Shown one piece after another: positions 31,951 to 52,244 of a stretch of 64,000 nucleotides of DNA. The number at the start of each line of letters is the position of its first letter. Position 1 is the stretch's first letter. The DNA is from an uncultured Candidatus Saccharibacteria bacterium (GTDB lineage: Bacteria > Patescibacteriota > Minisyncoccia > Phycocordibacterales > CAIZLB01). The position numbers and the translations under genes were made by a program. The stretch lies in assembly GCA_964550955.1 (NCBI GenBank), contig CAZKAF010000001.1, positions 99,951 to 163,950 on the forward strand, given 5' to 3'. A model generated the notes under the pieces. It was not told the origin of the DNA. It saw only the letters and a list, made by a program, of their open reading frames with translations, and did not search any database.

Positions 31951-33840
31951 ATGGAACTTTTACTCGCAATATTGCTTTCAGTCGGATACTTCGCGCCGTT
32001 CATCTTTTACCGAAACCTCAAGTCGTTCGTCGGCTCCCTGACGATATTCCTGTCCGCGCACCTGCTTGTGGGCCTGGCCACGCAGTTTGCGGGAATATTC
32101 ACGTACCTGACGGTGACCCTGATTCACCTGGCATTGAACGTGACCGCGCTGGCGATGCTTCATGTCGCGCTGAAGCGCAAGGAAGCCCCTCCGGTGGCGC
32201 ATGTCGAGGATTTGAAAAAGAAAAACAATATTTTTTGGGCGAAGGTCGTCATCGGAGCGATAGCCTCGGTCACGTTGCTGTATCAGGCCTATTCCGTCCA
32301 CTACAGCTTTACCGGACTGGCCAGCACTATCGTAGGCACGCAGGCCTTGCAGGGCAGCGCGTATCCGTACCCGTATTATTCCGACGAATGGGTGGCAGTA
32401 TCCATGATCAACTATTCGATCAGCACGAAATCCCTGCCTCTCGTCAATCCTCTGAATGCGAACGAGCCGTTCATGCATTTCCTGACGCCTTTCTACAGCC
32501 TCGTTTCCGAGCTTAGCCTGTCTTTCGGGCTGAATCCTCTGACGGACTATTCAAAGCTGACCATATTCTTCGGGGCAATCCTGTTCATTTCCCTGTATGC
32601 ATTGCTGCGCTCGTACGGAATCGGCTTCTTCGCGGCCGTGCTGGCCGTGCTTTCGGCCGGCCAGATCACGAACGGGGCCAATCTTGCCGTTTTCTGGTAC
32701 CTCATACCGTATCTGGTCGGATTCATATTCTTCATACACTTTTTAATGTATCTTCAGCTCAAGAAATGGCCGCTGGCGACGGCATCCGGGCTCATGGCCT
32801 GCCTCCTGTATCCGCCCATGGCCGTATTCATGTTCGCGGCCCTGATTCCCATCCTGTATGCGGTCAAGAAGGAGCTCCGAGTAAAGGTTCTCGTCTCTGT
32901 CTTGGCAGTCACCCTGGCTTTGGTCTTCTCGACTTCCATCATATCGATAGAGACATTTTCATTCGCCGAAACGCTCAAGACGTTCTTCGACCTGATATTC
33001 CGGGACTCTCTTCTCCGGGGTTCGGTGGCGGACTACAAGCTTTGGTATGTCATGCCGCTGTTCTTCGTTCCTTTCGCATTTCACGGCCTGTATTTGGCGT
33101 TCAGGCAGAAAAGGCACAGCCTCGTTTCCGCGACGGCGTTCGGCCTTGCCCTTTGGCTCATATATCCTCATATTCCGTTCGTGGTGTTCCTCGAGCATTC
33201 GAGAGTCGTGGCAGTTACGGGCCTCCTGCTTTTTGTGGCCATCGGTTTCAGCTATGAGTTCATCCTGAGATACATCGAGCTCGGCCAGAAGGAGAATATC
33301 ATCGACCCTTTGGTCGATCCTTCCTTGCCCAAGCGGATTTCCAGAATGTTCGTGAAATACATGATACCGATAGTGACGGGCGCATGCGTGCTCATCTTCG
33401 CGTTCTTCGCCGGAGGGTATACCGAGCGCCTGCTCTGGGTAAATTTGAAATTGAAGACGCCTAATCAGAACGGAACAGCTCAGCTGGTGTCGCCGGCCAC
33501 TCCCGCCAACAGGTACCTGCATCAGGATGACCTCAGGCTTTTCTCCGACCTGGAGAAAGTCCGCTTCTTGGCGCCGCCGTGGAAAGGGCTCGTAATCGGG
33601 GTGGCGACAAACAATTATCCGCTTGAATCAAAATCCTCCACGGTTACGAATCTTCAGCTCAAGTATTCCGATTTTATGAGATCTTCATGCGTTCAGAAAG
33701 CTTTGTACATACGGGATAGGAAAGTCGAGTACATATACAGCGAACAGCAGACCTGCAAGGATCTGCTTAAGACGCTGACTCTTATCGGTACCAGCACCGA
33801 AGGCCTCCATCTCTACAAGACTTCATACAAGGCCATTTAA
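31951..33840 (+). CDS. large polytopic membrane protein, candidate GT-C glycosyltransferase/polymerase
   Basis: 629 aa, more than 12 TM helices; adjacent to a Dpm1/ArnC-like GT2. The functional assignment is by context only. Confidence 0.5.
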   Translation: MELLLAILLSVGYFAPFIFYRNLKSFVGSLTIFLSAHLLVGLATQFAGIFTYLTVTLIHLALNVTALAMLHVALKRKEAPPVAHVEDLKKKNNIFWAKVVIGAIASVTLLYQAYSVHYSFTGLASTIVGTQALQGSAYPYPYYSDEWVAVSMINYSISTKSLPLVNPLNANEPFMHFLTPFYSLVSELSLSFGLNPLTDYSKLTIFFGAILFISLYALLRSYGIGFFAAVLAVLSAGQITNGANLAVFWYLIPYLVGFIFFIHFLMYLQLKKWPLATASGLMACLLYPPMAVFMFAALIPILYAVKKELRVKVLVSVLAVTLALVFSTSIISIETFSFAETLKTFFDLIFRDSLLRGSVADYKLWYVMPLFFVPFAFHGLYLAFRQKRHSLVSATAFGLALWLIYPHIPFVVFLEHSRVVAVTGLLLFVAIGFSYEFILRYIELGQKENIIDPLVDPSLPKRISRMFVKYMIPIVTGACVLIFAFFAGGYTERLLWVNLKLKTPNQNGTAQLVSPATPANRYLHQDDLRLFSDLEKVRFLAPPWKGLVIGVATNNYPLESKSSTVTNLQLKYSDFMRSSCVQKALYIRDRKVEYIYSEQQTCKDLLKTLTLIGTSTEGLHLYKTSYKAI

Positions 33841-33894
33841 TAAAAAACTATCTAACTTCTTTGTTCAGCTGCCCGCATCGCTAAGCGAGCGCGA

Positions 33895-35154
33895 TCATTC
33901 CGCCGCTTCTCCCGTCTCTGCTCCGCTTGGCGGAGCGGACTGCATGTTCTTGATGATGATGTCTATGCTCTCGGGCTCTATCTCTGACACGGTTATGTAA
34001 GACGGAACGTTGAGCATTTCCTTCTTGATCTCGATGGCCTTGGTTCCGGATGCGAAGTCCTTGGCATCGACTCGAATCTCGAGCTTCGTGGCGTCGATGA
34101 GGCTGATGTCCCTGCTTTTTCCTTGCAGCACGACATTGACTTGCCTGGTGCTGGTCTTGCTCTCGATTTCGAGTCCCGAAGGAAGAAGCTGGAACGACAG
34201 CGGAACCGTATATTCCTTCTTGATGACTCCGGTCTGGACGAATAGGAAAATCCACAGGATGGAGGCGACGGAAAGCGCCAAGGCTTTCGTGCCCAGATTG
34301 CTCAGGAAGAAATAATGCCAGAAGCTCGTATGCGCCTTTTCTTCCTCGCCCGTAAGCTTCTTGAGCAATTCCCGGAGCGCGTCTTCCTTCATGACCGTGC
34401 CCTTTCCTTGTTCATATGCGGTTATGGTTCCTCGCTCTTCCGAAACGGCGATGGCAATGGCGTCAGTATCTTCCGTGACGCCGGCTGATGCCCGGTGCCT
34501 CGTGCCCGCCTTTCTGTATCCGGTATATTCTCGGGCGAGCGGCAGATGAACTCCGAAAAGCTTGATCGCGTCGTGCTCGATGACGATGGCGCCGTCATGC
34601 CCGGACGAATTCGTGTCGAAGATGCTGAGAATGATTTCTTTCGTCACTTCGCCGCCGAGCCGCTGTCCGCCCTCGATGAGGTCGTCAAGCTCCTGCTTGC
34701 CGGGAAACACGATTATCCCGCCGATTCTTTTCTCCGCCATGTATAAGAGCGCGTCGGCAATCTCGCCGGACGTGCCCTTGCTGATCTGCTTGGCCGAACT
34801 GAACAGGTCGCGCTGGCCAGTGACGATCCACTTGAAGAATTTGCGGATTTCCCGCTGAAAGACGATGGCGATGATGATGAACGTCAGCGTCGAGAGAGGC
34901 TGCAGGATGGAGCGGGTGAGCGAGAGGTTGAGGTTCTGCGACAGGAAGCTGACCGCCATGAGAACGAGCGACACTCCGGCAACGAAATACGAGCGCGTCT
35001 GCTTGACGAACAGCAGGACGATGTAGATGGCGAGAGCCACGAGGGCGATATCTATCACTTCTCGAAACGTTATGTTTTGGAAGGCGATTCCTATGTTCGA
35101 GAAAGAGCTCGCGACGGATGCGAGCTGGAATGATGAGATAAGGTCCTGATACAT
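33895..35154 (-). CDS. cdaA: diadenylate cyclase CdaA fused to a YbbR/CdaR-like domain region
   Basis: Three N-terminal TM helices. DAC motifs SSGHDGAIVI...GTRHRASAGVTEDTDAIAIAVSEERG. A further TM helix and YbbR-like repeats make up residues 280-419. Confidence 0.75.
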   Translation of the reverse strand: MYQDLISSFQLASVASSFSNIGIAFQNITFREVIDIALVALAIYIVLLFVKQTRSYFVAGVSLVLMAVSFLSQNLNLSLTRSILQPLSTLTFIIIAIVFQREIRKFFKWIVTGQRDLFSSAKQISKGTSGEIADALLYMAEKRIGGIIVFPGKQELDDLIEGGQRLGGEVTKEIILSIFDTNSSGHDGAIVIEHDAIKLFGVHLPLAREYTGYRKAGTRHRASAGVTEDTDAIAIAVSEERGTITAYEQGKGTVMKEDALRELLKKLTGEEEKAHTSFWHYFFLSNLGTKALALSVASILWIFLFVQTGVIKKEYTVPLSFQLLPSGLEIESKTSTRQVNVVLQGKSRDISLIDATKLEIRVDAKDFASGTKAIEIKKEMLNVPSYITVSEIEPESIDIIIKNMQSAPPSGAETGEAAE

Positions 35155-35450
35155 GTTGTAATTTGCTTTAGCTTATAAAAGGTATTAACCCCAGAGCAGG
35201 CTCTGGACATTGCAAGCAAAGCTCGCATGTTCCGCAGCAAGCTGCGGGTTAAACATTGTGTTACCGTCGCTCGTTCGGAAATGAAAATGTATTTTCATTT
35301 CTCTCACTTTGCTAGGTAATAAAAATGCTTGATACGTATACATAATATAGATACGGGCACGATGTAACAACCCCGATAATCGCAGTTCCGGAGGATTCTT
35401 TCAGCCATGCGCGACAGAATGGGGCATGATGCCCGGTTCAATGCTGAATA

Positions 35451-35480
35451 TTGACAGTATATGCATATCTATAGTATAAT
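35451..35480 (+). promoter_or_regulatory. near-consensus sigma70-type promoter for the DGR target gene
   Basis: TTGACA (35451-56), 18-nt spacer, TATAAT (35475-80). Confidence 0.6.
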
Positions 35481-35512
35481 AACAAAGATACAGCTCCTTT
35501 AAAACCATGGTT

Positions 35513-35563
35513 CTTCGCCACAGCACAAAGCTCTTTATCTGAGGGCTCCGTGCTGTGGCGAAG
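35513..35563 (+). promoter_or_regulatory. strong hairpin in the putative 5' leader of the DGR target gene
   Basis: CTTCGCCACAGCAC ... GTGCTGTGGCGAAG: 14-bp perfect stem with a 23-nt loop. Confidence 0.5.
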
Positions 35564-35623
35564 AGTCCAGCGAACCAAACCGCATCCTTATGGGTGCACA
35601 TCAAATAGAACATCGATAACGGT

Positions 35624-36319
35624 ATGAAACCGATTACGACAGGACAGAGAGAGCAATTCGGAACCGTCGTCAAAGACGCGGCCCGCAAAGCGGCTGAAGA
35701 AGGGGTCACCGAACTTGAACAGGGTGGTGCTCTCGACGGCGACAGCATCCAGCGCGTCCTCGAAAAAGGAGGTGATCTGGCTGCCAAGCTGAAAGCGTTC
35801 GTGAAAACGACGCTTGCCGAAATGGCGGAAAGCATCCGCGGATGCCTCAAGTTAATCTCGGGAGCGGAAACGCTTACCCTTGATCCGACTGACGGCAAGA
35901 AGACCATCGCAAGGGCCGGCGACCTGTTCTTTTATCTCGACGGTGACTTCAAGGCCTATGGCTGCGACGTCCCCGGAAAACCGAGCCAGGGCGGTCCCGT
36001 CCAGGTTCACGAGATGGTCAAGGACGGTACCTTCGCCCAGATTTTTGGCGGATTGAGTGACAATCTCGATTCGTTGTGTCTGGAGCAGGACCAGATCATT
36101 CAGTTTGTCGAGAAGCACCGCAAGTGGCTTCGCACGGATGGGTACGGCACCTTCTTCCTGTTCAAGGTGAACGGAGAAGGCTTCGTTGCGAGCGTGCCCG
36201 TGCCCTCCGGTGGCGGCCTCTGCGCCGACGTCTCTCGCTTCTCGCGCGGCCTTGTCTGGTCTGCCCGGGATCGTCCTCGCGTGGTGGTTCCGCAACCCCT
36301 TGTGCCTCAGGTTCCCTGA
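35624..36319 (+). CDS. DGR target (variable) protein; C-terminal ~40 aa encoded by the VR
   Basis: 231 aa. The last 120 nt form the VR. The TR counterpart encodes Asn (AAC) where the VR encodes varied residues. Confidence 0.75.
   Translation: MKPITTGQREQFGTVVKDAARKAAEEGVTELEQGGALDGDSIQRVLEKGGDLAAKLKAFVKTTLAEMAESIRGCLKLISGAETLTLDPTDGKKTIARAGDLFFYLDGDFKAYGCDVPGKPSQGGPVQVHEMVKDGTFAQIFGGLSDNLDSLCLEQDQIIQFVEKHRKWLRTDGYGTFFLFKVNGEGFVASVPVPSGGGLCADVSRFSRGLVWSARDRPRVVVPQPLVPQVP
36181..36300 (+). repeat. DGR variable repeat (VR)
   Basis: About 120 bp aligned to the TR at 36668-36787; about 25 mismatches, every one at a TR adenine. Conserved 3' end GTGGTGGTTCCG. Confidence 0.85.
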
Positions 36320-36667
36320 ACCTTTGGCTCTTAGTCCCTTTGACCCTTTGTCCGCGTATGAAAATGCGTTGGCAGAGGTCAGGGGGATTTTTTTTATGCA
36401 GCGATGTCCGCGTTTACTAAAATCGCCGGCCGAGTGTATACTGAACATGCAATGCATAGACGCGTCTCGGCCACGGCTTGGATGCCATACTTGCGTCAAT
36501 GCAGGCTCGAGAATTTTGCCGGACACGTCCTGCAAAAGAGCGGGTCTGTCTTTTCAAATAAAAAATAATTAGTTGGTGCGACAAGCTGAAGGACTTCTAG
36601 GTCCTGCATAAGATTCAGCCCGTCCTGATTGGGCGGGCAGTGTACCAGATGGCTTGCCGCACGAATT

Positions 36668-36787
36668 CTTCGTTGCGAACGTGAACGTGAACTCCGATGG
36701 CAACCTCAACGCCAACGTCAATCGCTTCTCGAACGACAATGTCTGGAATGCCAAGAATCGTCATCGCGTGGTGGTTCCGAAACTCAT
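36668..36787 (+). repeat. DGR template repeat (TR), non-coding
   Basis: Adenine-rich copy of the VR with 13 AAC/AAT codons in the VR frame; not part of a credible ORF. Confidence 0.85.
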
Positions 36788-36798
36788 GATTTCTCTCA

Positions 36799-37161
36799 TC
36801 AAGACATGGTGAGAGTTTTGTTTTGGCGGGATTGCGCCAGAGGGCTTTGCAGTCCTTTTCGCCATCCTCCGAGCATCTTGCCTATTTCCTCAAGCTTCCC
36901 CGAAAGCTCTATGTATTTAGGAGTCGGCATCAGCTTGCTTTCCCATGCCAGCTGCATGAAGAACTTAAGGGCATCCAGCTTCGATATCGTGGTTCCGAGA
37001 ACATGGACTTTTTCTGCCGGCGCCATGTATATGCATGCGAAGCTCAATTCCAGCACTTCGAGAAAGATGCCTTCGATCTTCTGGCCCATGCCGAACCTTT
37101 CGGTTCTCGGGAAATTCCTATGAAGCAATAGCCAGGCTTGGTAGGCTTCCTTTTCTTTCAA
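36799..37161 (-). CDS. avd: Avd (accessory variability determinant), four-helix-bundle protein
   Basis: 120 aa. FPRTERFGMGQKIEG and KLEEIGKMLGGW match the Avd / 23S-rRNA-IVS four-helix-bundle family. TTG start. Lies on the strand opposite to TR and RT. Confidence 0.75.
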   Translation of the reverse strand: MKEKEAYQAWLLLHRNFPRTERFGMGQKIEGIFLEVLELSFACIYMAPAEKVHVLGTTISKLDALKFFMQLAWESKLMPTPKYIELSGKLEEIGKMLGGWRKGLQSPLAQSRQNKTLTMS

Positions 37162-37185
37162 GATTACGCCAGGGGTCGTTTTTGC

Positions 37186-37198
37186 GGGGGGGGGGGGG
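37186..37198. repeat. G13 homopolymer tract in the avd/RT divergent intergenic region
   Basis: gcgggggggggggggggca, seen directly. Confidence 0.8.
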
Positions 37199-37224
37199 CA
37201 GATTCATGGTTTGTATTGTGTAAT

Positions 37225-38223
37225 ATGAAAAAAATGAATATTTCCTACAACGATATCATATCTTTGGAAAATCTCTACGAAGCGTGGGCGGAGTTCGTCA
37301 ACGGCAAGAGACATAAAAGGGACGTGGCCTTGTTTGCATTAAATCTCTCGCACAATATTTTCGCGCTGCATGAGGAGCTGAAGAACAGGACGTATCGGCA
37401 TGGCGGATATAAGGCATTTGCCATCAATGATCCGAAGCCTCGAAGTATCCATAAGGCTCATGTTCGGGACAGGCTTCTGCATCATGCGGTCTATCGAACC
37501 CTGTACAGGTACTTTGACAAGAAGTTCATATTTGATTCGTACTCGTGCAGATACGCCAAAGGGACGCATAGGGCGCTCGGCCGCTTCCGTCATTTTTTCA
37601 ACAAGGTCTCTCACGGCAATCGCCGGACGTGCTGGGTGCTGAAGTGCGACGTTCGAAAATTCTTTGCGTCCATAGATCAGGGAATATTGCTGGACATATG
37701 CAAAAGGCACCTGCCGGACCAGGACATACTCTGGCTCATGCAGGATATCGTCGGCAGCTTTTATAGCACGGAAGCGGGGAAGGGCCTGCCTCTTGGAAAT
37801 CTCACGTCTCAATTGCTCGTAAACGTATACATGAATGAATTTGACCAGCATGCGAAGCATGTCCTCAAGCACCAGCATTACATTCGCTATGCCGATGATT
37901 TTGTCATCATGCATCACGATAAAAGCGAGCTGCAGAAGGCGCTTCCGAAAATAGGGGAATTCCTGCTCGATAATCTGAAATTATCGCTGCATCCCGACAA
38001 GGTGTTCATCAAGACGTTCGCGTCGGGCGTTGATTTTCTTGGCTGGGTCCATTTTCAAGATCATAGGGTTTTGCGAAATGCCACGAAGAAGAGGATGCTT
38101 AGAAATTTGAACGGAGGGGCCGCGAAAGAGGTCGTCCAGTCCTATCTCGGCCTCCTTTCTCACGGGAACGCGTTTGGGCTGAAAAGGAGGATCAAGGCCT
38201 TGATGCGCAAAACCATTGATTAG
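37225..38223 (+). CDS. DGR reverse transcriptase
   Basis: RT domains with the IRYADDFVIM (YADD) box. The N-terminus LENLYEAWAEFVNGKRHK is typical of DGR/retron RTs. ATG 37225 is preferred over the track start 37138, which would run through the G-tract. Confidence 0.9.
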   Translation: MKKMNISYNDIISLENLYEAWAEFVNGKRHKRDVALFALNLSHNIFALHEELKNRTYRHGGYKAFAINDPKPRSIHKAHVRDRLLHHAVYRTLYRYFDKKFIFDSYSCRYAKGTHRALGRFRHFFNKVSHGNRRTCWVLKCDVRKFFASIDQGILLDICKRHLPDQDILWLMQDIVGSFYSTEAGKGLPLGNLTSQLLVNVYMNEFDQHAKHVLKHQHYIRYADDFVIMHHDKSELQKALPKIGEFLLDNLKLSLHPDKVFIKTFASGVDFLGWVHFQDHRVLRNATKKRMLRNLNGGAAKEVVQSYLGLLSHGNAFGLKRRIKALMRKTID

Positions 38224-38267: not shown

Positions 38268-38296
38268 TTGACAAACACATACAAATATAGTACTAT
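38268..38296 (+). promoter_or_regulatory. sigma70-type promoter
   Basis: TTGACA, 17-nt spacer, TACTAT; ends about 15 nt upstream of ATG 38312. Confidence 0.5.
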
Positions 38297-38311: not shown

Positions 38312-39055
38312 ATGACCAATTTAACTATCTCAACAGAAATGATCAAATCAACATTCATCTACGCAGGAGCGGTTCTTATTGTATTTGGTGCATATTTTTC
38401 AACTCCAATTACGGCAAGCGCTGCTACGTACCTAATCGACCTTTCAGGCAATGGCTGCGGCTCGCAATGCGCCGAACTTCAGGAATATTTGAATTCGCTT
38501 AACAGCAATAGCAATTCGAATTCGTCATCTACAAGCTCGACTGATGCGAATGGTTCTGGCGATCAGGCCACAGTTCCGACGTATCCGAACCTTCAGTACC
38601 AGTATTCGTCATCTACGCTGGCGTATTATCAGAGAAACCAGCAGCCGACGACTTCCAACTTGTATGCATATCCGACGTATTCGTACTTTGCGAATCCGGC
38701 AGGCGCGTATCCAAGTTCATACCCAGGCACTGCGTATCCGAGTGGTGCTGCATATCCGGCTCAGAACCAATATAACCCATACGGCCAGTACAATCAGTAC
38801 GGCTCGACAGGCTATGTGCCGTACCCTTCGCTTCAGTACGTGTATAACAATGGCAAGGTGGCTGGTCCTTCGACCTCCACATACGCTGCTCCCAACTATG
38901 CAGCGGAGCTGTACATGCTAGGCCGGTACCCGTCCTATGGCGCGCCGACATACGGCACTCAGTCCCAGCAGCCTTACCCTTATTACGGAACGCAGGCTTA
39001 CAATGCTCCGTTCTCGATGCAGCCTTCAGGCTTCGTCATGACTTCTGGAAAGTAA
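38312..39055 (+). CDS. secreted low-complexity Tyr/Pro/Gln/Ser-rich protein
   Basis: N-terminal TM/signal; CGSQC pair; motif YPSLQYVYNNGK; C-terminus GFVMTSGK. Paralog of the next gene. Confidence 0.55.
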   Translation: MTNLTISTEMIKSTFIYAGAVLIVFGAYFSTPITASAATYLIDLSGNGCGSQCAELQEYLNSLNSNSNSNSSSTSSTDANGSGDQATVPTYPNLQYQYSSSTLAYYQRNQQPTTSNLYAYPTYSYFANPAGAYPSSYPGTAYPSGAAYPAQNQYNPYGQYNQYGSTGYVPYPSLQYVYNNGKVAGPSTSTYAAPNYAAELYMLGRYPSYGAPTYGTQSQQPYPYYGTQAYNAPFSMQPSGFVMTSGK

Positions 39056-39145: not shown

Positions 39146-39724
39146 ATGAAGAAATTAACTTTCATTTCAGTGCTCGCTTTTGTCGTTTTCGGGTTCGCCT
39201 TCGCGGCGCGGCTGGAAGCTTGTTCAGTGTCGTACGGGTATGACTACGGCTGCGGAACGGGATATTACGGCGGCTCCTACGACGGTTACTATGGCGGAAA
39301 TGGCTACGGATACGGAACCGGATATGGAGACCAGTACAATTATGTGCAGTATCCAAGCCTGACATACGTCTACTATCAGGATCCCGGACCAAGGAACACC
39401 ATGAGCGACTACAGCTACAACTATGTGCAGTATCCGAATCTGACATACGTGTACCATGACGGCAGGACCTCTCGTCCGGCAGGCAACACGGGATATTCTT
39501 CATATCCTTCGCAGTATCCGCAGACAGGCGGCGGGAACAACAACCCGTATTATTCGCAGCAGCCTGCATATCAGCAGCAGCCGGCGTACCAGTATCAGCA
39601 GCCTGCATATCAGGCATATCAGAATCCGTATCAGTACGGGTACGGATATGCCGGCAATTCTTACGGTCAATACAGCCAATACTCCGCATACGGTGCCGGT
39701 TTCATCATGACGTCGGGGTACTAG
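39146..39724 (+). CDS. secreted low-complexity Gly/Tyr/Gln-rich protein (paralog)
   Basis: Signal peptide; Cys pair; YVQYPSLTYVYYQD and YVQYPNLTYVYHDG motifs; C-terminus GFIMTSGY. Confidence 0.55.
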   Translation: MKKLTFISVLAFVVFGFAFAARLEACSVSYGYDYGCGTGYYGGSYDGYYGGNGYGYGTGYGDQYNYVQYPSLTYVYYQDPGPRNTMSDYSYNYVQYPNLTYVYHDGRTSRPAGNTGYSSYPSQYPQTGGGNNNPYYSQQPAYQQQPAYQYQQPAYQAYQNPYQYGYGYAGNSYGQYSQYSAYGAGFIMTSGY

Positions 39725-44050: not shown

Positions 44051-44559
44051 TCCCCTGTAGCTCAGCGGTAGAGCAATCGACTGTGAACGTGTCCTGCCTT
44101 TGATATACTCCAAAGTATGTTGAAAAAGAGGACATATGCTGATCGTGCGCCATATATGATTGAAGCTGTCAGAAAGCGGAGAATAAAGCTTCGCAAGATG
44201 GCCAGAGAGTATAAAGGCGGCAAATGTGAGATTTGCTAAATTCGCGAAGGCATAACGCAGCTTCCGGTACGAAAGTCCGGTCGCAAATAAGGTGAATTGC
44301 TGGAAGTCCTGATTCTCATGTCAGGATAATCAGCAGCCAAGCTCGGCAAGAAATTGCCTTGAAGGTTCAGAGACTATCCCTTCGGGGAGTAGTCGGATGC
44401 AGGTAGCAATGCAAAGCGTTCGACGAAGCGCCTTACGTCTAAACATGTATAAGTGCAGCAATGCAAAATTCATGCATGACGATGATATAGTCCACACCGT
44501 CAGTAATGATGGATAAACGTGTAATCGATTGGTCGTAGGTTCGATCCCTACCGGGGGAG
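44051..44559 (+). tRNA. tRNA gene split by a group I intron in the anticodon loop (anticodon UGU/Thr or GUU/Asn depending on exact junction)
   Basis: 5' exon: TCCCCTG-TA-GCTC-AGCGGTA-GAGC-A-ATCGA-CT... 3' exon: ...TGTAA-TCGAT-TGGTC-GTAGG-TTCGATC-CCTAC-CGGGGGA-G. The acceptor stem pairs across 435 nt. Confidence 0.7.
44083..44519 (+). ncRNA. group I self-splicing intron (no ORF)
   Basis: R element TTCAGAGACTAT (44366-77) and S element GATGATATAGTCC (44481-93) supply the P7 pairing GACTA/TAGTC. A G precedes the candidate 3' splice sites, a U precedes the 5' splice sites. Confidence 0.65.
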
Positions 44560-44561
44560 CA
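44542..44561 (+). repeat. attL: 20-bp core (tRNA 3' end)
   Basis: cgatccctaccgggggagca, identical to 52691-52710. Confidence 0.7.
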
Positions 44562-46137
44562 TTGAAGGATGAGAAGGCACGAAAGTGCCTTTTTGTCTTT
44601 GTGGCATAAGGGTATTATCTGGTTCGTAGCACTCTGAAAGCCTCGGCATCCATTCCACGAAATACTTAGCCAATAAAGTTAAATCCGACTTTATTTCTAG
44701 GCTGTTTTGCCAGAAGTTCGTAAACAATTGGTTGAACAAAACTCGCTTGTCGTCATTCTCTGCCATCTCATAGATTGCATCCGCGTTAAACGCCAATTCA
44801 TGGACAATGAGAGCTAGATTCTGGTACTCATCAGACTGATTATTAATACGAACCAGGGCGCTTTGGAAATTCTCTTCCTCAGCTGAAATATGGGCTATTT
44901 GGCGCTCACAGAATTCAAGCGGAACTGTACCTTCGAGCTTAGCCATATAAATTTTATCCTTCTTGGTTCGTATCATACCTAAGTGAGTGTTTAGACGATG
45001 AATTTCATTCTCGCGTTCTCCAATTTTCTCTTTGAACTCGCAACAAATAACATCCTCAATCCATTTGAGTAGGTCTTTGTTCTTGGGTGCAATTTTCTTG
45101 AATATGGGTCTAAGTTGCTCCTCAACCTTTTCTTCGCGGATATAGGTCTTTTTAGGGCATTTACGAGAGGTCAGGTGGTTATTGCAATGTCCGTACCAAT
45201 GACTCTTTTGCTTCTCCCAAGTCAAAGATTTGCCGCAGCCTTCACAGACAATCATTGTCTTGAATAGCGGGTTGTGAATATTGAATCGCGGCTGATTTAT
45301 CTTTCGCTTTAATATCTTCTGCACTTTATCAAATAGGTCTCTTCCAATTATTGGCTCATGCTTACCGCTGTATTTCTGGCTTTTCCATAAGAAAGAACCG
45401 TAATAGAAAGGGTCTTGAATTAAGACATGCAATCTCTTATGAAGAACTCTTTTTCCGCTTCTGGCGCGCAGACCACGACTGTAAAGCTCCTCTTCTAATT
45501 TTGTTAAAGAGTAGTTTCCAGTGGCGTATAAATCAAACATGTCGCGCATAAGCGGGGCAACACCCTTATCAATAACATGTATCTTCTTTCCCTTGTCTCC
45601 TATGGTCATATAGCCCAAAGGTGGTTTTGTTGGCAGCCAACCTTCAGCTATCTTTTCAACTTGCCCTTTCTTAACTTCTTCAGAAAGGTTAGCGATATAT
45701 TTCTTAGCTAATACGATTTCAATATCCCATCTGAACTTTTCATCAGACTTGGCATTTTTATGAATTACTAAGTTCTGTTTTACAAAGTGGATATATCTGT
45801 TTTCGTCTTGCTCAAGCCAATCATTAATAACAACAGCTTCCTTAAGATTTCTTGTAAGCCTGTCCACTTTCTCACAGAGTAAGTGAGATATATTATTCTT
45901 TACAAGAAATTCCATCATTTCCCCAAAGACCTTTCTTTGTTTCGAGCCGCTGGCGCTTTCAGCAATACAGAATTCTTTAATAAGGTTGAATCCCTTTTGG
46001 TCAGAACGTTCCTTTAGTAATTTACTTTGAGCGGGAAGGGAATAACCTGTTTCCTCCTGTTCTCTGGTAGAGACACGGCAGTACATGGCTGCGCGATTAT
46101 TCGCCCCAAGTGATGGGGCTTGTTTCTGGGTCTTCAT
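44548..46137 (-). CDS. large serine recombinase (integrase)
   Basis: N-terminal resolvase catalytic domain (AAMYCRVSTREQ). Recombinase domain. Zinc ribbon CEGCGK...CPKK. Coiled-coil. The last 4 codons overlap the tRNA 3' end. Confidence 0.85.
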   Translation of the reverse strand: MKTQKQAPSLGANNRAAMYCRVSTREQEETGYSLPAQSKLLKERSDQKGFNLIKEFCIAESASGSKQRKVFGEMMEFLVKNNISHLLCEKVDRLTRNLKEAVVINDWLEQDENRYIHFVKQNLVIHKNAKSDEKFRWDIEIVLAKKYIANLSEEVKKGQVEKIAEGWLPTKPPLGYMTIGDKGKKIHVIDKGVAPLMRDMFDLYATGNYSLTKLEEELYSRGLRARSGKRVLHKRLHVLIQDPFYYGSFLWKSQKYSGKHEPIIGRDLFDKVQKILKRKINQPRFNIHNPLFKTMIVCEGCGKSLTWEKQKSHWYGHCNNHLTSRKCPKKTYIREEKVEEQLRPIFKKIAPKNKDLLKWIEDVICCEFKEKIGERENEIHRLNTHLGMIRTKKDKIYMAKLEGTVPLEFCERQIAHISAEEENFQSALVRINNQSDEYQNLALIVHELAFNADAIYEMAENDDKRVLFNQLFTNFWQNSLEIKSDLTLLAKYFVEWMPRLSECYEPDNTLMPQRQKGTFVPSHPSMLPR

Positions 46138-46254
46138 GGTTGTGTTTGCAACCTTGGTTTGTCAGTGATATTCTTCGGGTATCACTTAACAACGAAAGTT
46201 GCTTTTGTGTGTTATCTAAAAGACCTCTTGCTTAGCCGCGGGGGTCTTTTAGTT

Positions 46255-46476
46255 TTAATTAAATAGCGTTAGTACAAGAATCAATACAGTAAAAGTGAGA
46301 ATCCATCCAAGTTTTCCGTATTTCTTTTCCCATTGGATATTTTCTTTGACAGCGTGCAACATTATTTCTTGTTCTGACATTTTGTAAACTTCCTTATAGT
46401 TTTCTACTTTGAACTTGGCTGAAATGGTAGCTTCCAAATCTTCGCGACTAGTTTTTTCTTCTTTTGTGATTGCCAT
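46255..46476 (-). CDS. small protein with C-terminal TM helix
   Basis: 73-aa ORF on the island. Confidence 0.35.
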   Translation of the reverse strand: MAITKEEKTSREDLEATISAKFKVENYKEVYKMSEQEIMLHAVKENIQWEKKYGKLGWILTFTVLILVLTLFN

Positions 46477-46701
46477 TGCTTTTCAATTAGGTTGATAACA
46501 AGGCAAACGAAAAAGCGACAGCCGTTGCCTTGCAACCCATACTGAAAGCACAAAGGCTCGCAATCTGGAAGGTCAGCTGCCGCTTTCTAGTCCAGATTGG
46601 TTGGACCACAGAAAAACAGCGCTGCCTTTGCGCGTAAATATTCAATATGGGTTGCTCTTACATTCTACCATACTGAATGAGGGTGGCAACTTGTGGCAAG
46701 G

Positions 46702-46875
46702 TCAGCCATCGTCTGATTTCTCCACTTCAGCATTAAAATAAGCCTCAAGTATCGTGGTCAATAGCTTAATCATGGAGGTCTCCTCAATAGCAGCAATCAT
46801 CTTAAGATTTTGGTGCAGCTTCTTGGGTATCCTCACAAGCACAGTCTTTTTGTTTTGATGTAAATTTGTATACAT
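46702..46875 (-). CDS. 57-aa ribbon-helix-helix (CopG/Arc-like) DNA-binding protein (not in ORF track)
   Basis: MYTNLHQNKKTVLVRIPKKLHQNLKMIAAIEETSMIKLLTTILEAYFNAEVEKSDDG. A beta-strand plus two helices, with the KxxLxRIPxxLHxxLK pattern. Confidence 0.4.
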   Translation of the reverse strand: MYTNLHQNKKTVLVRIPKKLHQNLKMIAAIEETSMIKLLTTILEAYFNAEVEKSDDG

Positions 46876-47555
46876 TTTGTTTTAGTCGCCCGACTTTTAC
46901 CTTCTAACCCCCTCCTGCGGGATGCAGTTGCTGGGTTTCTTTCTGTATCAGACGGATGCCTTTAGTGCAGCAGCTACCCTTAAGTATTGCTCATTTGTGC
47001 AATCACTTTTTCGAACTCTGCCTAAAGATGAAATGCTGCGGCGCTCTTCATTGAACTGGGCGAGAAGTCGTACACTCGTTTTCCCAGTTTTTCGCAAGAA
47101 CGTCTCAACACTCCTTGTTGTTTTTAACGCGCTCCCTCCTCAGTCGCGCCATTGTGTAAGTGATGAGTTTTACTTCTGCCCACACTTAATAGAAGGTTTC
47201 GTCTGAATTGTTCAAGGCTAAATTAATAGCCCTAAAGCCCCTTGGTGGTAAAGTCCCAAACACTAAGAGGCTTTAGGAGTATCAATCTTCTTGTTCTTTT
47301 GAAGTATCACAAATAAACCCAGATAAAACTGAGCCACTGATTGGGCTATTGTATTAAGTTCATCATCAGCAATGAATACACCTGCCTTTGCATTGATTTC
47401 TTTGAACTTCTGTATTTGTTCGGGTGTTAGCTTCACTCATTGAGAATATCAGTAACTCTTATACACTCTACATACACCCTCCCAAGTCTATATTCAGAAA
47501 ATAACCCTTATTTCAGGCTGTCATCAATTACTTATTAACATGTACAAGGAAAAAT

Positions 47556-48191
47556 CTAGATTAAAGTTATGTCTAAATCAATCGTGTAGCCTTCGCCTCG
47601 AATACCTCTTATTGGCTTTGCTCCAGTATTAAGGAGTTTTATTTTTTCCATTACTTTATTTGTCTTTGTGATTAGCTCGCCGACTCGAATTCCATGATTG
47701 CCGAATGCAGACTGAATATCCTTTGTTTTAAGTGGTCCGTCAGTGTTGGCGAATAAAGTAAGTAATCTATAACGTTGAGATTCTTTGCTTACAGTACCTA
47801 TCTTCGTATCATCCATATAAATAGCCCCCTCAGAGTCTATTTTTATCTTAGTCTTTTTTGTACCAGTATATTGAGCGGGGTCAAAAGTCTTTGTATTAAC
47901 ATCGACAGCGTAACTTTCTGCCAAACCAACTTCATCAATTAAAGAAATGTCATCTGTCTTGATTACAAAGCATCTCTTCTGAGTGCTGCCTTTTTCTTTT
48001 TCATAACAGCCATAACCATGCTTAAAATCCTCAACAATTCCTAGCTGTTTGAAATGAAGTAGAATTTCGTACACATCTTGTCTTGTAAGGTCTTTTTGCA
48101 GCTCAGATATGGAAATACCCAGAGTCTTGCCACCAAACTGCTGGTTCTGCTGTTGAAGATAACTGAGGATTGTTCGCTCGTCTGATTTCAT
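47556..48191 (-). CDS. hypothetical protein with N-terminal winged-helix-like region
   Basis: 211 aa. Start codon overlaps the track start of the divergent Xis-like gene. Confidence 0.45.
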   Translation of the reverse strand: MKSDERTILSYLQQQNQQFGGKTLGISISELQKDLTRQDVYEILLHFKQLGIVEDFKHGYGCYEKEKGSTQKRCFVIKTDDISLIDEVGLAESYAVDVNTKTFDPAQYTGTKKTKIKIDSEGAIYMDDTKIGTVSKESQRYRLLTLFANTDGPLKTKDIQSAFGNHGIRVGELITKTNKVMEKIKLLNTGAKPIRGIRGEGYTIDLDITLI

Positions 48192-48231
48192 GTATATTTA
48201 CAGTATAACTTGCCACAAGTTGCCAAACAAC

Positions 48232-48414
48232 ATGCCTTCAAAAACACCCCAATTTTATACCCTGAAAGAGGCTTCTGAATTACTCAAAGTAAGTGTAAGG
48301 AGTCTATACCGTTATATTCAGACCAAAAAGTTGGTGGCAACAAAGGTTGGCTATTGGCGAATAAGCAAAAATGACTTAGACAGTTTTATTAAGGATGGCT
48401 CAAACATTAAATAA
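48232..48414 (+). CDS. excisionase-family HTH DNA-binding protein (MerR-superfamily Xis-like)
   Basis: YTLKEASELLKVSVRSLYRYIQTKKLVATKVGYWRISKNDLDSFI. The ATG at 48232 is preferred over the track start 48190. Confidence 0.55.
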   Translation: MPSKTPQFYTLKEASELLKVSVRSLYRYIQTKKLVATKVGYWRISKNDLDSFIKDGSNIK

Positions 48415-50266
48415 AATGAAACTGTATCTTAAATCATTGGAGCTAACAAATTACCGTACTTTCGGTAGTGAAACCCTAGATATAGATAAAGAGATAACTC
48501 TTCTTGTCGGGGCTAATGAATCAGGCAAGACTAATCTTCTGGATGCACTAGAGCTGCTTGATGTTGAGAAGACATTTAATGATTCGGATACAAAAATTAA
48601 CTCTGAATACTCCGCAAAGAATTACGAGCCATATCTAAGTTATAGAATGGAGCTGACTGAAGAAATGCAAACTAAGCTTAAAAGGTATGCAAGATACTTT
48701 GAAAAGAATAACGAGGTTTTTATAAATCGTAATGGGAGCGATATTGACGATATAACAGTAGATACGGTAAATGACGTAAGCTATGATTTCCCAATTGCAT
48801 ATAGGAACGTATCAGATGTAGAACAGAAACTCATTAGCAAGAACGGCATTGTGGCTCTTTCCCCGCAGAGTTACACACTTACTTCCATTAATTATTTCAA
48901 GAACTCAAAACTTTTCAAAGACGGAAAGGTTATAAAGATTGAAGATAAAGAAAGAAACAGGCTCCTAACTGCAAAAATAAAAGAAATTGTCTTGGAAAAT
49001 ATGCCATCTGTGTTTCTCTGGAAGTATTCAGATGCCTACTATATTCCCAAAGATGTACCGATTGATTTTTATAATCAGAAGGACAAATTTCAGTCTGTAA
49101 TAAATCTCTTTAAGTTGGGGGACATAGATGAAGATAAGATTGTTACACACCTAACGAATAGAGACAGTGTATACATAATCAATTTTTTGAATACTTTGTC
49201 TAAGAAAGTATCACTTGTGCTGAATAACACTTGGAAACAGAGGAAAAATATAAAGCTCAATCTTCATTTTAAAGAAACTTGGATAGAGATTCTGGTAGAG
49301 GAGAAGGACTATCAAATTGACCCAAATAAAAGAAGTGAAGGGCTACAGTGGTATCTTTCGTTCCTTATCAATTTTCGTTCAAAACTACAGACTCTCAAAA
49401 ATAATATAATCTTGTTTGACCAGCCTGGAGACAAGCTTCATCCTGGCGGACAAAGAGACCTTATGGAAAGATTTGAAGAGATGGCTGAATTTAATCAGAT
49501 TGTTTATTCAACTCATACGCCGTTTACAATAAATAAGGATTATCCAGAAAGAGTTAGGCTTATAACTAGACCCGAGGATGACAGTAAGATTATCAACAGG
49601 CTAAGTAACAGAGAGATTTTTAAGGATGAGTTATTGAGAAGCTCACTTGGTTTAAGTTTGTCTGATGTATCTCCTGTGGCTGAGAAAAATATTCTTGTTG
49701 AAGGTTTGTTGGATAAGCTCATATTAACGGATTTTATAGAGAAATTGAAAAAGTTTAAGTTCAGTATCAAGCTGAACCAGTCTGTTATCATTCCAGCGCA
49801 CAGCGCTTCGAAGATTCTTTATTATGCTAATTTTATTAAATCAAACGGATTAGACGTTTTAGCGATATTTGATGGAGACGCAGCAGGGAAGGAGGCAATT
49901 GTAGAAAATAAAAAGAAGAAGGTTTTGGAAAGTAGGGAAATCTTACTAGTGTCTTTAGGCAAAGGGACTGCACAAACTATAGAAGACATTATCCCGATAA
50001 AAATTATTACTGATTCTATTAATGAAATAGGAGTGCTTATTGATAAAAATAAATTTACTCCAATTGCATTAACGACAACACCAGTAATGCCACTTATAAA
50101 GGGTCATTTCGCAAAACTTGGAATGGATTTTTCAGAATCAGATAAACATCTGTTTTCAATTAAGGTATTGGAAAAGTTTAAGAAGATGCCCGTTAAGGAA
50201 ACGGATTTAAAGGGTAGTCTGTCAGGACTCTATGAATTAGTTAAAGAAATAAAAAAGAAGTTATAG
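48395..50266 (+). CDS. OLD-family nuclease: N-terminal ABC-type ATPase + C-terminal TOPRIM domain
   Basis: P-loop LLVGANESGKTNLL. Walker B/D-loop ILFDQPGDKLHP. H-loop YSTHTP. TOPRIM ILVEGLLDK...IFDGDAAGKEA. Confidence 0.7.
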   Translation: MAQTLNKMKLYLKSLELTNYRTFGSETLDIDKEITLLVGANESGKTNLLDALELLDVEKTFNDSDTKINSEYSAKNYEPYLSYRMELTEEMQTKLKRYARYFEKNNEVFINRNGSDIDDITVDTVNDVSYDFPIAYRNVSDVEQKLISKNGIVALSPQSYTLTSINYFKNSKLFKDGKVIKIEDKERNRLLTAKIKEIVLENMPSVFLWKYSDAYYIPKDVPIDFYNQKDKFQSVINLFKLGDIDEDKIVTHLTNRDSVYIINFLNTLSKKVSLVLNNTWKQRKNIKLNLHFKETWIEILVEEKDYQIDPNKRSEGLQWYLSFLINFRSKLQTLKNNIILFDQPGDKLHPGGQRDLMERFEEMAEFNQIVYSTHTPFTINKDYPERVRLITRPEDDSKIINRLSNREIFKDELLRSSLGLSLSDVSPVAEKNILVEGLLDKLILTDFIEKLKKFKFSIKLNQSVIIPAHSASKILYYANFIKSNGLDVLAIFDGDAAGKEAIVENKKKKVLESREILLVSLGKGTAQTIEDIIPIKIITDSINEIGVLIDKNKFTPIALTTTPVMPLIKGHFAKLGMDFSESDKHLFSIKVLEKFKKMPVKETDLKGSLSGLYELVKEIKKKL

Positions 50267-50566
50267 ATTTAACTTATGTTTTAGAGAGGAAAATATCGCA
50301 CCTACCAAAAAGCCAGCCAGGACACCAATCATGAAAAGTACCACTCCTGCGGCGTATGGATTATTCACTAATTCATTGAATTTTTCAGGATTACTTTTGT
50401 TCATTTCTTGGTAAGCGGCAACAACGATGACACCCCAAAAAGCACTGAAGCCTAAATATTCAAAATCGCTTATTGTCTTTCTGGAACCGTTGCCTTTTCT
50501 GTAACCCCACACCAAGCCAAAGCCAGCCAGTATGATTAGAAAGTAAGTATATGTATCTATGTCCAT
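50261..50566 (-). CDS. small membrane protein (coordinates approximate)
   Basis: Three TM helices beginning MDIDTYTYFLIILAGFGL. The track ORF extends to 50695, but the upstream part looks non-coding. Confidence 0.3.
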   Translation of the reverse strand: MDIDTYTYFLIILAGFGLVWGYRKGNGSRKTISDFEYLGFSAFWGVIVVAAYQEMNKSNPEKFNELVNNPYAAGVVLFMIGVLAGFLVGAIFSSLKHKLNL

Positions 50567-50747
50567 AGTGGCACAAATACTACATTTCTTGCGGCGAAAA
50601 GCAACCTCACGGTGCATATTAAAGTTGAGTCTTGAAAGGGTGTAAAGAGTGCTTTGTGGTACAATTATGCTAACATCAGTACACCCTATGACCATCTCAA
50701 ATAATCAATGTTTGCTCACAAATTTTGTCCTTGTTCCAGTCAATTCC

Positions 50748-51350
50748 ATGGAGCCTGCAACTTTCTTTACTGATAAAATAAAGGCAAAGTTTGTGGAGAT
50801 TTATGGAGATTCCAGCAAGCCGACAATAACTCAATTTCCAGAGCTGTTGGTAATTTTTGATGCTGTAAATCAAATTAATGTTTCTATAGAAAGAGGAAAG
50901 GCTGTGATTACTGACAGTAAGGTAACCAATTTCAATCAACGAGACCTAAATAAGTTATCTCAGTTTGCACACTCTATATTTAATGTTTTAGAGTTAGGGA
51001 AGTTAAAAGCTTATGGCTTTAATACAATTTGCTTAATGGATTTAGAAGCGGGAACTAATTCTTCGAAGTTGTTAAGCGATAGCTTTTTAAAGCTTGATAA
51101 ATTTACTTCAAGTGAAGGGGAAATAATTGGCGGAGGTGTAAGATTAATTTATAAAAATGCCTCGTCTGTGAGGAATGACCTAAGAATTGACCCATTCTTT
51201 GCTGAAGGTTCCCTTGATGAGACAGAGACGATAAGAGTGAATCAGAATTCAAATTTTGATAAGCAGGTCTTGCCAGATTTATCAGAGTTACAAGGTTGTA
51301 TTTCAGATATTTACAATGCATTGCCAGTTTTAATTGGAAAGCTTATATGA
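50748..51350 (+). CDS. hypothetical protein (island cargo, gene 1 of 3)
   Basis: The ATG at 50748 is in frame with the track GTG start 50649. The stop overlaps the next start (ATGA). Confidence 0.45.
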   Translation: MEPATFFTDKIKAKFVEIYGDSSKPTITQFPELLVIFDAVNQINVSIERGKAVITDSKVTNFNQRDLNKLSQFAHSIFNVLELGKLKAYGFNTICLMDLEAGTNSSKLLSDSFLKLDKFTSSEGEIIGGGVRLIYKNASSVRNDLRIDPFFAEGSLDETETIRVNQNSNFDKQVLPDLSELQGCISDIYNALPVLIGKLI

Positions 51351-51775
51351 TTGAACATAATTTAATTAAAATCGTGACAAGCGATAATATTTCTGTGACT
51401 ACTCAGCCTATGGGTTTGGGGGTTGCCTTGTCAGACACATACATTATCGATACCTCAAAGTGTATTGATAATGTAACCCAATTTCAATATGTAGGCTCTG
51501 TTTCTGCCCTTACGACTAGTTTTACAATCACGCATAGAAACGACTCTGGTTTCAGTAATTCTGATTTAAAGAGATTAAACAAGATTGTATACAACTTTCA
51601 GGATACATTGCCTCATACAGTTATATTTGAAAAAGTTAAGAAATATGAACATCGTTTTAACTTAAAGTCTGAGGATTTTCACACAAAGTGGGAATTAGGA
51701 GAATTACCTGCGACCCCTGAATTTTATGACTGGAATAACTCCTACAAGACTTTAAATTTAAATGTCAGTAAGTAA
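51347..51775 (+). CDS. hypothetical protein (island cargo, gene 2 of 3)
   Basis: Translationally coupled; overlaps the next gene by 14 nt. Confidence 0.45.
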   Translation: MIEHNLIKIVTSDNISVTTQPMGLGVALSDTYIIDTSKCIDNVTQFQYVGSVSALTTSFTITHRNDSGFSNSDLKRLNKIVYNFQDTLPHTVIFEKVKKYEHRFNLKSEDFHTKWELGELPATPEFYDWNNSYKTLNLNVSK

Positions 51776-52244
51776 ACGTGTACAGTATATAAAAGATACT
51801 ATTAAAAGTTATAAAGATATTTTTGAATATCCAGAGGTGTCTTTAAATTCAGTAAAGACTAGCAATAATAGTATCTACTTTCCTCGGGAAGTTGATTTTG
51901 ATAAGGCTGAGGGTGCCGAATTGAAAGGGGGAGTCGGTTTCCTCTCTGTTTTTGAGGATTATGATGAAACCAATAAAAAAGTCAAAGGATATATTTATCG
52001 ATTTTCATCTGACGAATATACGTACCTAGTAGAACATAAAAAATCAAAAGAATGTGTAGATACATATTTTAATTTTCATTACCAGGATGACGATAAGCAT
52101 GAACCTCACGTTTCATTTCTCCACAATTCAATTCGATACAATTCTGCAAATATTCAACTGGATGAATTTCTTGATTTCGTTAAGAGAACCTTTATGGGTC
52201 CACGAAAAGGAATGAATTATAGAGTTTGGCATTCGAGGAATTAA
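51762..52244 (+). CDS. hypothetical protein (island cargo, gene 3 of 3)
   Basis: 160 aa; no family recognised. Confidence 0.45.
   Translation: MSVSKRVQYIKDTIKSYKDIFEYPEVSLNSVKTSNNSIYFPREVDFDKAEGAELKGGVGFLSVFEDYDETNKKVKGYIYRFSSDEYTYLVEHKKSKECVDTYFNFHYQDDDKHEPHVSFLHNSIRYNSANIQLDEFLDFVKRTFMGPRKGMNYRVWHSRN

Follow-up and report, generated by a model that had tools for sequence, protein, structure and literature searches.

A chromosomal, apparently active diversity-generating retroelement with conserved RNA structure around its template repeat in a Candidatus Saccharibacteria genome

Introduction

Diversity-generating retroelements (DGRs), in which a template repeat (TR) is transferred to a variable repeat (VR) in an adenine-specific manner, are more enriched in the Candidate Phyla Radiation (CPR, or Patescibacteria) than in any other bacterial group, and were reportedly first surveyed there by Paul et al. 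in 2017. The B3 architecture, TR-(avd)-RT, in which the avd accessory gene is inverted relative to the TR and the reverse transcriptase (RT) gene, accounts for 90% of known CPR DGRs, the targets of which are grouped into ‘UVR’ classes (Wu et al., 2018; PMC5758913). CPR DGRs correspond to ‘DGR clade 2’ of Roux et al. (2021; PMC8144416), who openly state that the ligands and the cell location of clade 2 targets are unknown. Here we describe a DGR in a window of 64,000 nucleotides (nt) from an uncultured Candidatus Saccharibacteria bacterium (GTDB lineage Patescibacteriota; Minisyncoccia; Phycocordibacterales; CAIZLB01), comprising positions 99,951 to 163,950 of the forward strand of contig CAZKAF010000001.1 (GCA_964550955.1); all coordinates below are window positions. 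A sequence-only reading had proposed a complete DGR at this locus, and we conclude with high confidence that the locus is an active, chromosomal element of the CPR type.

Several features of other DGRs bear on its interpretation. DGR RTs carry the signature [I/V/L]GxxxSQ, which replaces the QGxxxSP of other RTs (PMC7826257). In the Bordetella system, cryo-electron microscopy identified an 11-bp stem-loop right past the TR as the Avd-binding element, bound by all five Avd protomers, and stem-loops of ~9 bp are predicted past the TR in 207 of 278 Avd-type DGRs, those of CPR included (bioRxiv 10.1101/2023.10.23.563531). Cytoplasmic DGR targets in multicellular bacteria and cyanobacteria, in turn, consist of C-type-lectin-like (CLec) domains fused to STAND NTPases, kinases and similar domains (PMC10907252, PMC7517822).

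Results

Adenine-specific variable and template repeats

The cassette is ordered target(+) – TR(+) – avd(−) – RT(+), and every defining DGR component is present and intact. Self-alignment of the window yields an ungapped 112-nt repeat at an offset of 487, made up of the VR (36181-36292, +) at the 3' end of the target gene (35624-36319, +; 231 amino acids, an open reading frame already delimited in the sequence-only reading), and the TR (36668-36779, +), with a sharp upstream limit of homology (36180/36667). The two copies mismatch at 24 positions, at every one of which an A in the TR stands opposite G (9 positions), C (11) or T (4) in the VR. With 27 adenines in the 112-nt TR, 24 of which are altered in the current VR, the hypergeometric probability that all 24 mismatches fall on A is 1.7e-21, and an origin of the repeat as a duplication or pseudogene is rejected because the mismatches are confined to A. 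The earlier statement that every mismatch lies at a TR adenine was made for a repeat of 120 nt; it holds in full for the 112-nt repeat but not for the longer one, the last 7 nt of which (36294-36300) fall beyond the end of homology and include one mismatch at a base other than A (36297, where the TR has T).

Position 36293/36780 is C in the VR and A in the TR, a difference found family-wide (CCGCAAC in VRs, CCGAAAC in TRs). As it is fixed throughout the family, and the corresponding glutamine codon of the target (Gln224, CAA) is conserved in 116 of 120 homologues, we attribute it not to mutagenesis but to the distinction between an initiation-of-mutagenic-homing site (IMH) and its counterpart at the TR (IMH*). 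The candidate IMH, GTGGTGGTTCCG followed by CAAC (36281-36296, +), and candidate IMH*, GTGGTGGTTCCG followed by AAAC (36768-36783, +), keep this distinction in ~50 loci. The sequence-only reading had also assigned a putative IMH anchor to the conserved 3' end.

The VR encodes residues 186-223 of the 231 in the target, and constitutes the last 37 codons of its conserved part. Read in this frame, the TR has the translation given previously, with 11 AAY, 2 GAY, 1 AAG and 1 CAT codon. Its adenines stand at codon positions 1 and 2, AAG is the sole variable codon able to yield a stop, and the 15 diversifiable codons could generate ~10^16 protein variants from this one template. No further copies of the VR or TR were found within the window.

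Recent diversification in the sampled population

The TR is an invariant master copy from which the VR has been rewritten, only where the TR has A, recently in the sampled population. A 3,251-bp contig from a Logan assembly of run SRR16797977 (L001) is identical to window positions 33411-36661 except for 21 bases, all of which lie within 36191-36270, i.e. in the VR, and 20 of which are at TR-adenine positions. In the sibling run SRR16797981, in turn, one contig (L088) matches window positions 32624-37198 without a single difference, even in the VR. The presence of two VR alleles in otherwise identical DNA implies that the element was active very recently; this evidence comprises two alleles, in two snapshots, from assembled contigs only. 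The protein encoded by L001 (P0001 in the protein database) is 94% identical to the target, and all 13 of its differences lie in the VR.

Reverse transcriptase and Avd

The RT gene (37225-38223, +) encodes 332 amino acids, and matches RVT_1 (5.7e-22) and the PHROG RT family (2.7e-106). We place its start at the ATG at 37225, rather than at 37138 or 37228, which gives a protein of the same length as a database copy (P0268). Both the YADD box noted earlier (37888-37899) and the DGR signature, as LGNLTSQ (37792-37812), are present. Of more than 8,000 homologues retrieved, the best 120 are all at least 63% identical to the window RT. The avd gene (36799-37161; 120 amino acids) lies on the minus strand, opposite to the TR and RT, an orientation on which the sequence-only reading was silent although it recognized the gene itself. 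Its product matches Pfam bAvd (PF22296) at 51.6 bits (cutoff 40) and the PHROG family ‘Avd protein of DGR’ at 3e-17, as well as an NCBIfam model discussed below.

Target protein and its family

The target has no match in Pfam, NCBIfam, PHROGs or PADLOC, and a sequence-profile search of the PDB returned only noise. An AlphaFold2 model based on a 120-sequence alignment has a predicted local distance difference test score (pLDDT) of 89.4 for the whole protein, and is composed of three helices (residues 1-71) followed by an α/β domain (residues 72-231), which when modelled alone reaches a pLDDT of 93.6 and a predicted template modelling score of 0.90. The topology of this domain bears a weak resemblance to the CLec fold, and the domain may be a very divergent CLec-like one; Foldseek found no match to the model in the PDB with E < 0.2. 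A match of residues 27-83 to the caspase-1 CARD (E 0.028) was dismissed, as the model has three helices there and not a six-helix death fold. Neither the target nor any of the 120 family members has an N-terminal hydrophobic segment, signal peptide or transmembrane segment, and hydrophobic peaks are confined to the VR strands; the lack of a signal peptide in the target itself had been noted in the sequence-only reading.

At least 255 close relatives of ~205-245 amino acids were recovered, and every organism name supplied by their sources is a Patescibacteria/CPR metagenome-assembled genome (MAG). A profile search of 1.84 billion representatives returned 2,496 clusters at 50% identity, 1,949 of them at E ≤ 1e-10. 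The view that this is not a described DGR target family can be upheld insofar as it has neither a Pfam or NCBIfam model nor a named fold, but not beyond that, since such domain-less CPR targets have already been published. The conserved unit of the family is the C-terminal region of ~155 residues; the N-terminal ~70 residues differ between subfamilies. A few proteins, P0122 (476 amino acids) and P0123 (560 amino acids) among them, carry two or three tandem copies of this 155-residue domain.

Variation within the family is concentrated in columns 190, 192, 194, 198, 200, 202, 204, 208, 210, 213 and 216, which have an entropy of ~3-3.5 bits and 10-16 residue types, and which are exactly the AAY codons of the window TR. 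The columns of the GAY, AAG and CAT codons are less variable (1.5-2.5 bits), mainly among residues allowed by substitution of A, and the residues between hypervariable columns are mostly well conserved. This pattern implies a scaffold and a set of diversified positions that are both fixed across the family. No conserved neighboring effector gene was seen around the target loci.

RNA structure before and after the template repeat

In 49 non-redundant loci, the stretch of some 260 nt that leads from the target terminator to the TR shows strong conservation. Applied to a structure-blind MAFFT alignment of these loci, RNAalifold predicts within this region a structured plus-strand domain of ~220 nt (36449-36660), made up of helices H1 (36466-36471/36476-36481), H2 (36501-36508/36542-36549), which encloses H3 (36514-36524/36527-36537), and H5 (36578-36587/36651-36660), which closes 8 nt before the TR and encloses both H6 (36591-36594/36601-36604; GGAC/GUCC) and the variable hairpin H7 (~36618-36638). 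The domain also contains an A-rich linker (36557-36567) and a near-invariant AGUUGGUG (36571-36578). Over 47 pairs, 95.3% of positions are paired, compared to 41-48% in controls in which the partner strand was slid; doubly changed, compensatory cells number 404 against 57-84 in the same controls, none of 500 shuffles reached the observed values, and compensatory changes occur in 37 of the 47 pairs.

A second structure, CUCUCAUCA...UGGUGAGAG (36793-36825, +), stands 10-15 nt past the TR, and consists of a 9-bp stem-loop (36793-36815) followed by a U-tract; it overlaps the stop codon of avd and was terminator-like in a consensus scan. The corresponding TTTCTCYC…GRGAGTTTT is found downstream of every TR in the family, with compensatory changes across 39-49 loci, the three outer pairs being invariant and the inner pairs covarying (for example UA/CG and AU/GC/CG). 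RNA structures around the TR are under selection. By analogy with Bordetella, the post-TR stem-loop is likely to be an Avd-binding element, the 3' terminator of the TR RNA, or both.

The upstream domain had no match in Rfam, even at E ≤ 10. A 34-nt pattern derived from it matched more than 120 metagenome stretches, and none in viral contigs. Most of the 80 matches listed that have enough flanking sequence carry avd(−) and RT(+) at fixed distances, and 40 of the 60 with enough upstream sequence have the window target family there. Six further matches lie in cassettes with a divergent target subfamily and A-only VR/TR mismatches, which implies that the RNA domain belongs to the retroelement lineage rather than to one target. 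Around 13 of the 80 lack avd, RT and target in their surroundings, and appear to be chance matches.

Signals around the target gene and repeats

The target gene is preceded by a promoter-like site (35451-35480, +; TTGACA-18-TATAAT), recognized by consensus match only (12/12), and by a long hairpin in the mRNA leader (35512-35564, +), an inverted repeat with 23-nt arms. The base of this hairpin, CGCCACAGC...GCUGUGGCGAAGAGUCCAGC, is conserved in sequence within the family and its top is variable; the motif recurs upstream of many homologous targets, including orphans with no RT nearby. Three further plus-strand elements were read directly from the sequence and have equivalents among relatives. 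These are a second small leader hairpin just before the ribosome-binding region (35582-35597; GCAUCC-UUAU-GGGUGC, replaced in relatives by GUAUCC-GCAA-GGAUAC hairpins), a short hairpin that spans the stop codon 13 nt past the IMH (36309-36323; AGGTTC-CCT-GAACCT, similar to GARCC-TTT-GGYTC in relatives), and an intrinsic terminator of the target gene (36336-36395; CCCTTTGACC...GGTCAGGGGG and then T8), the pattern of which recurs in the family as ATCCCTYTGA...AGGGATTTT. The leader hairpins (35512-35597) had no match in Rfam; the long one may be a regulatory element, and the hairpin at 36309-36323 may correspond to the inverted repeat found past the IMH in Bordetella. A promoter-like site for the TR RNA (36413-36442, +) matches the consensus at 9 of 12 positions; its -10 box (36436-36442) is conserved family-wide as TATACT/TATAAT, directly past the T-run of the terminator.

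Related loci and orphan targets

A scan of GTDB species genomes yielded 155 relatives, nearly all titled Patescibacteria/CPR, a few having generic or other labels, and 80 loci were kept for analysis of layout. About 50 of the 80 are arranged as target(+) – TR – avd(−) – RT(+). The TR begins 425-534 nt past the VR in family loci, and VR/TR mismatches across the family number 899 at A and 71 at other bases, the latter mostly reflecting matches between the VRs of tandem paralogues. Roughly 30 of the 80 have no RT nearby. Some family members (L006, 6001-8100; JGI 3300049215) retain the target, 5' RNA domain, TR and post-TR stem-loop, with no avd or RT within reach, and others (L004, 6001-6750; GCA_046350795.1) have the target alone. 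In two MAGs, an orphan VR matches the TR of a cassette on another contig (L015 with L016, and L034 with L025), with mismatches at A except for two or three terminal ones at T. One DGR can thus serve two targets.

A second, divergent target subfamily of ~190-235 amino acids was also found (L147:6499-7125, L138:3026-3643, L115:295-996, L090:1556-2215 and L133:25-591), with the C-terminus ...NGYxNIFxVKVNGEVFAVxVxW...RLxDxRWxAGxRxFS. The cassettes that serve it share the 5' RNA motif and likewise have an inverted avd and an RT, and there are 11-18 VR/TR mismatches per locus, all at A.

Genomic surroundings

The neighbors of the cassette are cellular genes, which encode CdaA, an FAD oxidoreductase and a large membrane protein that Pfam does not recognize. 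No phage structural genes occur among them, and a phage origin is rejected on the basis of this gene context and the absence of PHROG matches to the target. As the neighbors vary among relatives, the DGR behaves as a self-contained module.

The upstream gene (33895-35154, −) encodes a CdaA-type diadenylate cyclase with significant CdaA_N and DAC matches, and a C-terminal YbbR-like match below threshold (E 0.012; 16.3 bits against a cutoff of 22.3). Within the cassette, a G13 homopolymer (37186-37198) lies in the 63 nt that separate the divergently oriented avd and RT genes, and the independent short-read contig L088 terminates exactly in it; the tract may act as a promoter spacer that is prone to slippage and hence phase-variable, or may simply be a point at which assemblies break. 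Just past the RT, two neighboring genes (38312-39055, itself preceded by a promoter-like site at 38268-38296, and 39146-39724) encode low-complexity proteins rich in Y, Q, N, P, G and S, each with an N-terminal hydrophobic segment and a common C-terminal end, F(V/I)MTSG(K/Y); neither has a match in Pfam.

Further downstream, a tRNA gene (44051-44565, +) has its anticodon loop split by a ~437-nt group I intron (Rfam RF00028 at 44195-44513, 67.6 bits), and is found by ARAGORN only once the intron is removed. The identity of this tRNA depends on the position of the splice junction, which brute-force application of ARAGORN leaves ambiguous; the U|...G| rule favors tRNA-Thr(UGU), with exons that end at 44082 and resume at 44520, the alternative being His(GUG). 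Directly past the tRNA lies a low-GC island (44548-52000; GC content 0.35-0.42, versus ~0.52 elsewhere), which starts with a large serine recombinase (44548-46137, −) and encodes an OLD/AriA/GajA-like ATPase-nuclease with AAA_15 and TOPRIM domains (48395-50266). The island resembles a mobile element that has integrated at a tRNA site and carries a defense gene.

Discussion

The architecture of the locus suggests a working model, which draws on analogy with Bordetella. A non-coding RNA of ~375 nt (~36449-36825), consisting of the ~220-nt structured 5' domain, the TR, and the 3' stem-loop with its U-tract, would be transcribed from the promoter just past the target-gene terminator. The complex of RT and Avd would bind this RNA, with Avd holding the post-TR stem-loop, and priming may take place within or next to IMH*, the conserved GAAAC of which may pair with the U-tract past the stem-loop; such a pairing is predicted when the window RNA is folded to minimum free energy. 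The TR would then be copied into complementary DNA (cDNA), with random bases inserted opposite adenines, until synthesis halts at H5, which borders the TR on its 5' side; a stop at this helix would account for the limit of VR/TR homology at 36668. Finally, the cDNA would replace the VR, targeted by the IMH (CCGCAAC versus CCGAAAC) and possibly also by the small hairpin past it.

A number of observations count against this model, or against an active element more broadly. It is by analogy that the model gives roles to the 5' domain, to H5 and to the stem-loop, and the transcript ends, priming site and cDNA are predictions. The promoter proposed for the TR RNA matches only 9 of 12 consensus positions in the window, and its distance from the terminator exceeds that in relatives by ~35 nt. 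A search with RNAduplex for a stop duplex between upstream and downstream segments, as in Bordetella, gave no consistent register and z-scores near 0, and the sole candidate long-range pairing, 36573-36576/36869-36872, proposed by RNAalifold, is a weak lead that shows no covariation, its 3' strand being constrained by GGW codons of Avd. The match of Avd to NCBIfam DivGenRetAVD (E 8e-17, 61 bits) is below the curated cutoff of 80, and one difference between L001 and the window (36226, C/T) falls at a TR cytosine rather than an adenine.

These points need to be considered alongside three rival explanations. A decayed or domesticated DGR, no longer mutagenic, might bear fossil VR/TR differences, in which case the two assemblies would represent two old, co-existing alleles. 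Parts are indeed lost or separated in this family, as there are members with a target and TR but no nearby RT (L006/L007), and others with neither TR nor RT within 6 kb of the target (L004/L005), and at the window locus only two VR alleles were observed. Distance from an RT does not imply inactivity, however, given that orphan targets elsewhere match a TR in the same genome with mismatches almost exclusively at A. Moreover, the RT and Avd frames are intact, with catalytic and signature motifs kept, and the 21 allele differences are confined to 80 nt of a 3,251-bp stretch that is otherwise 100% identical, whereas old alleles would be expected to differ in their flanks as well. We therefore consider decay very improbable, and favor an element that is still active. 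It is also conceivable that the conserved 220 nt before the TR do not belong to the DGR RNA, and represent a separate small RNA, a leader or attenuator, or no more than sequence of the promoter and terminator. Joint transcription of the domain with the TR is deduced from sequence, the region includes the target terminator and a promoter that would be conserved for their own reasons, and the essential accessory RNA of Bordetella lies past the TR and not before it. Against this, the helices are located past the conserved -10 box and ahead of the TR, the last of them, H5, closing 8 nt before the latter; spacing is fixed across the 49 loci, and six helices distinct from the terminator and the promoter covary strongly. 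The RNA-domain pattern, further, retrieves mostly avd(−)/RT(+) cassettes, including those with divergent targets, and none that are viral. An origin outside the DGR is hence quite unlikely, in our judgment, and we regard the domain as part of the retroelement RNA.

The third alternative concerns the target, which may not be a lectin-like binder at all, but a new fold or a scaffold that tolerates variation, such as a regulator or toxin-immunity protein, the resemblance to CLec domains being an artefact of weak structural matches to a predicted model. We deem this alternative unlikely. In the model, the diversified residues fall on the C-terminal β-strands and loops of the lectin-like domain, and the target is most likely a soluble, two-domain protein that binds its ligand through an evolvable site. 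Taken one step further, a broader proposal can be made, albeit tentatively, as we find it plausible without being persuaded of it. The accessory RNA of CPR B3 elements may have been reorganized, with a ~220-nt six-helix domain before the TR that includes AGUUGGUG and the A-rich linker, a single stem-loop after it, and H5 serving as a stop by means of an upstream strand. This arrangement would amount to a second DGR-RNA solution and a new RNA family, and the targets to a new, minimal CLec-like sub-type of soluble, possibly intracellular binders in genome-reduced symbionts.

Relative to the DGR of Bordetella phage BPP-1 (mtd-avd-TR-brt), the present element has in common an adenine-specific transfer from TR to VR, an RT with [I/V/L]GxxxSQ and YADD motifs, Avd, an IMH/IMH* pair, a hairpin past the IMH, and, directly past the TR, a 9-11-bp stem-loop, which here is the positional analogue of Bordetella Sp3-33. 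The layouts nevertheless diverge. In Bordetella, avd is upstream of the TR on the same strand, whereas here it is inverted and starts 20 nt past the TR. The 140-nt post-TR spacer of Bordetella supplies the primer, stop duplex and RT-binding elements, while in this locus one conserved stem-loop and a U-tract follow the TR, and a large structured RNA precedes it. Likewise, the partner strand of H5 lies upstream, unlike the Bordetella stop duplex, which pairs segments upstream and downstream of the TR. The 231-residue soluble target also contrasts with the phage tail-fibre tip diversified in Bordetella. Among the closest known systems are the DGR variable proteins with solved CLec folds, namely Mtd, TvpA (2y3c), AvpA and TaqVP. 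As in cytoplasmic DGR targets of other bacteria, a diversified binding domain occurs without a secretion signal, which raises the idea of an intracellular diversified sensor, but in contrast to those proteins there is no recognizable signaling or effector domain and no PADLOC match, just ~70 variable helical residues.

The closest relatives are other CPR B3 DGRs, with which the locus shares gene order, inverted avd, host phylum, chromosomal context and a C-terminal VR, as well as a target that lacks a signal peptide, a membrane segment and any known domain. The window target family also occurs in MAGs from groundwater datasets on which surveys of CPR DGRs drew (L046, L048 and L086). There is no difference in kind from CPR B3/clade 2 elements: the locus is a typical member of a catalogued lineage with B3 architecture, clade 2 affiliation and domain-less targets, and the DGR itself is unsurprising. 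What it adds to published CPR DGRs is the size of the target family, a confident model of weakly CLec-like topology, a natural VR switch between two runs, and the 5' structured RNA. The RNA domain, the target leader hairpin, and, for the target family, both its fold model and its breadth appear to be new, in that no description was found in the searchable literature, although a prior description is possible. The value of the locus lies in its being a clean, compact and apparently active system, with a model of the target, a large family in which the variable positions are fixed, and natural VR alleles. Its candidate RNA layout differs from that of the sole DGR that is understood mechanistically, and thus makes it possible to test how DGRs with an inverted avd prime and stop cDNA synthesis, and what role a lectin-like protein with no signal peptide plays in an episymbiont.

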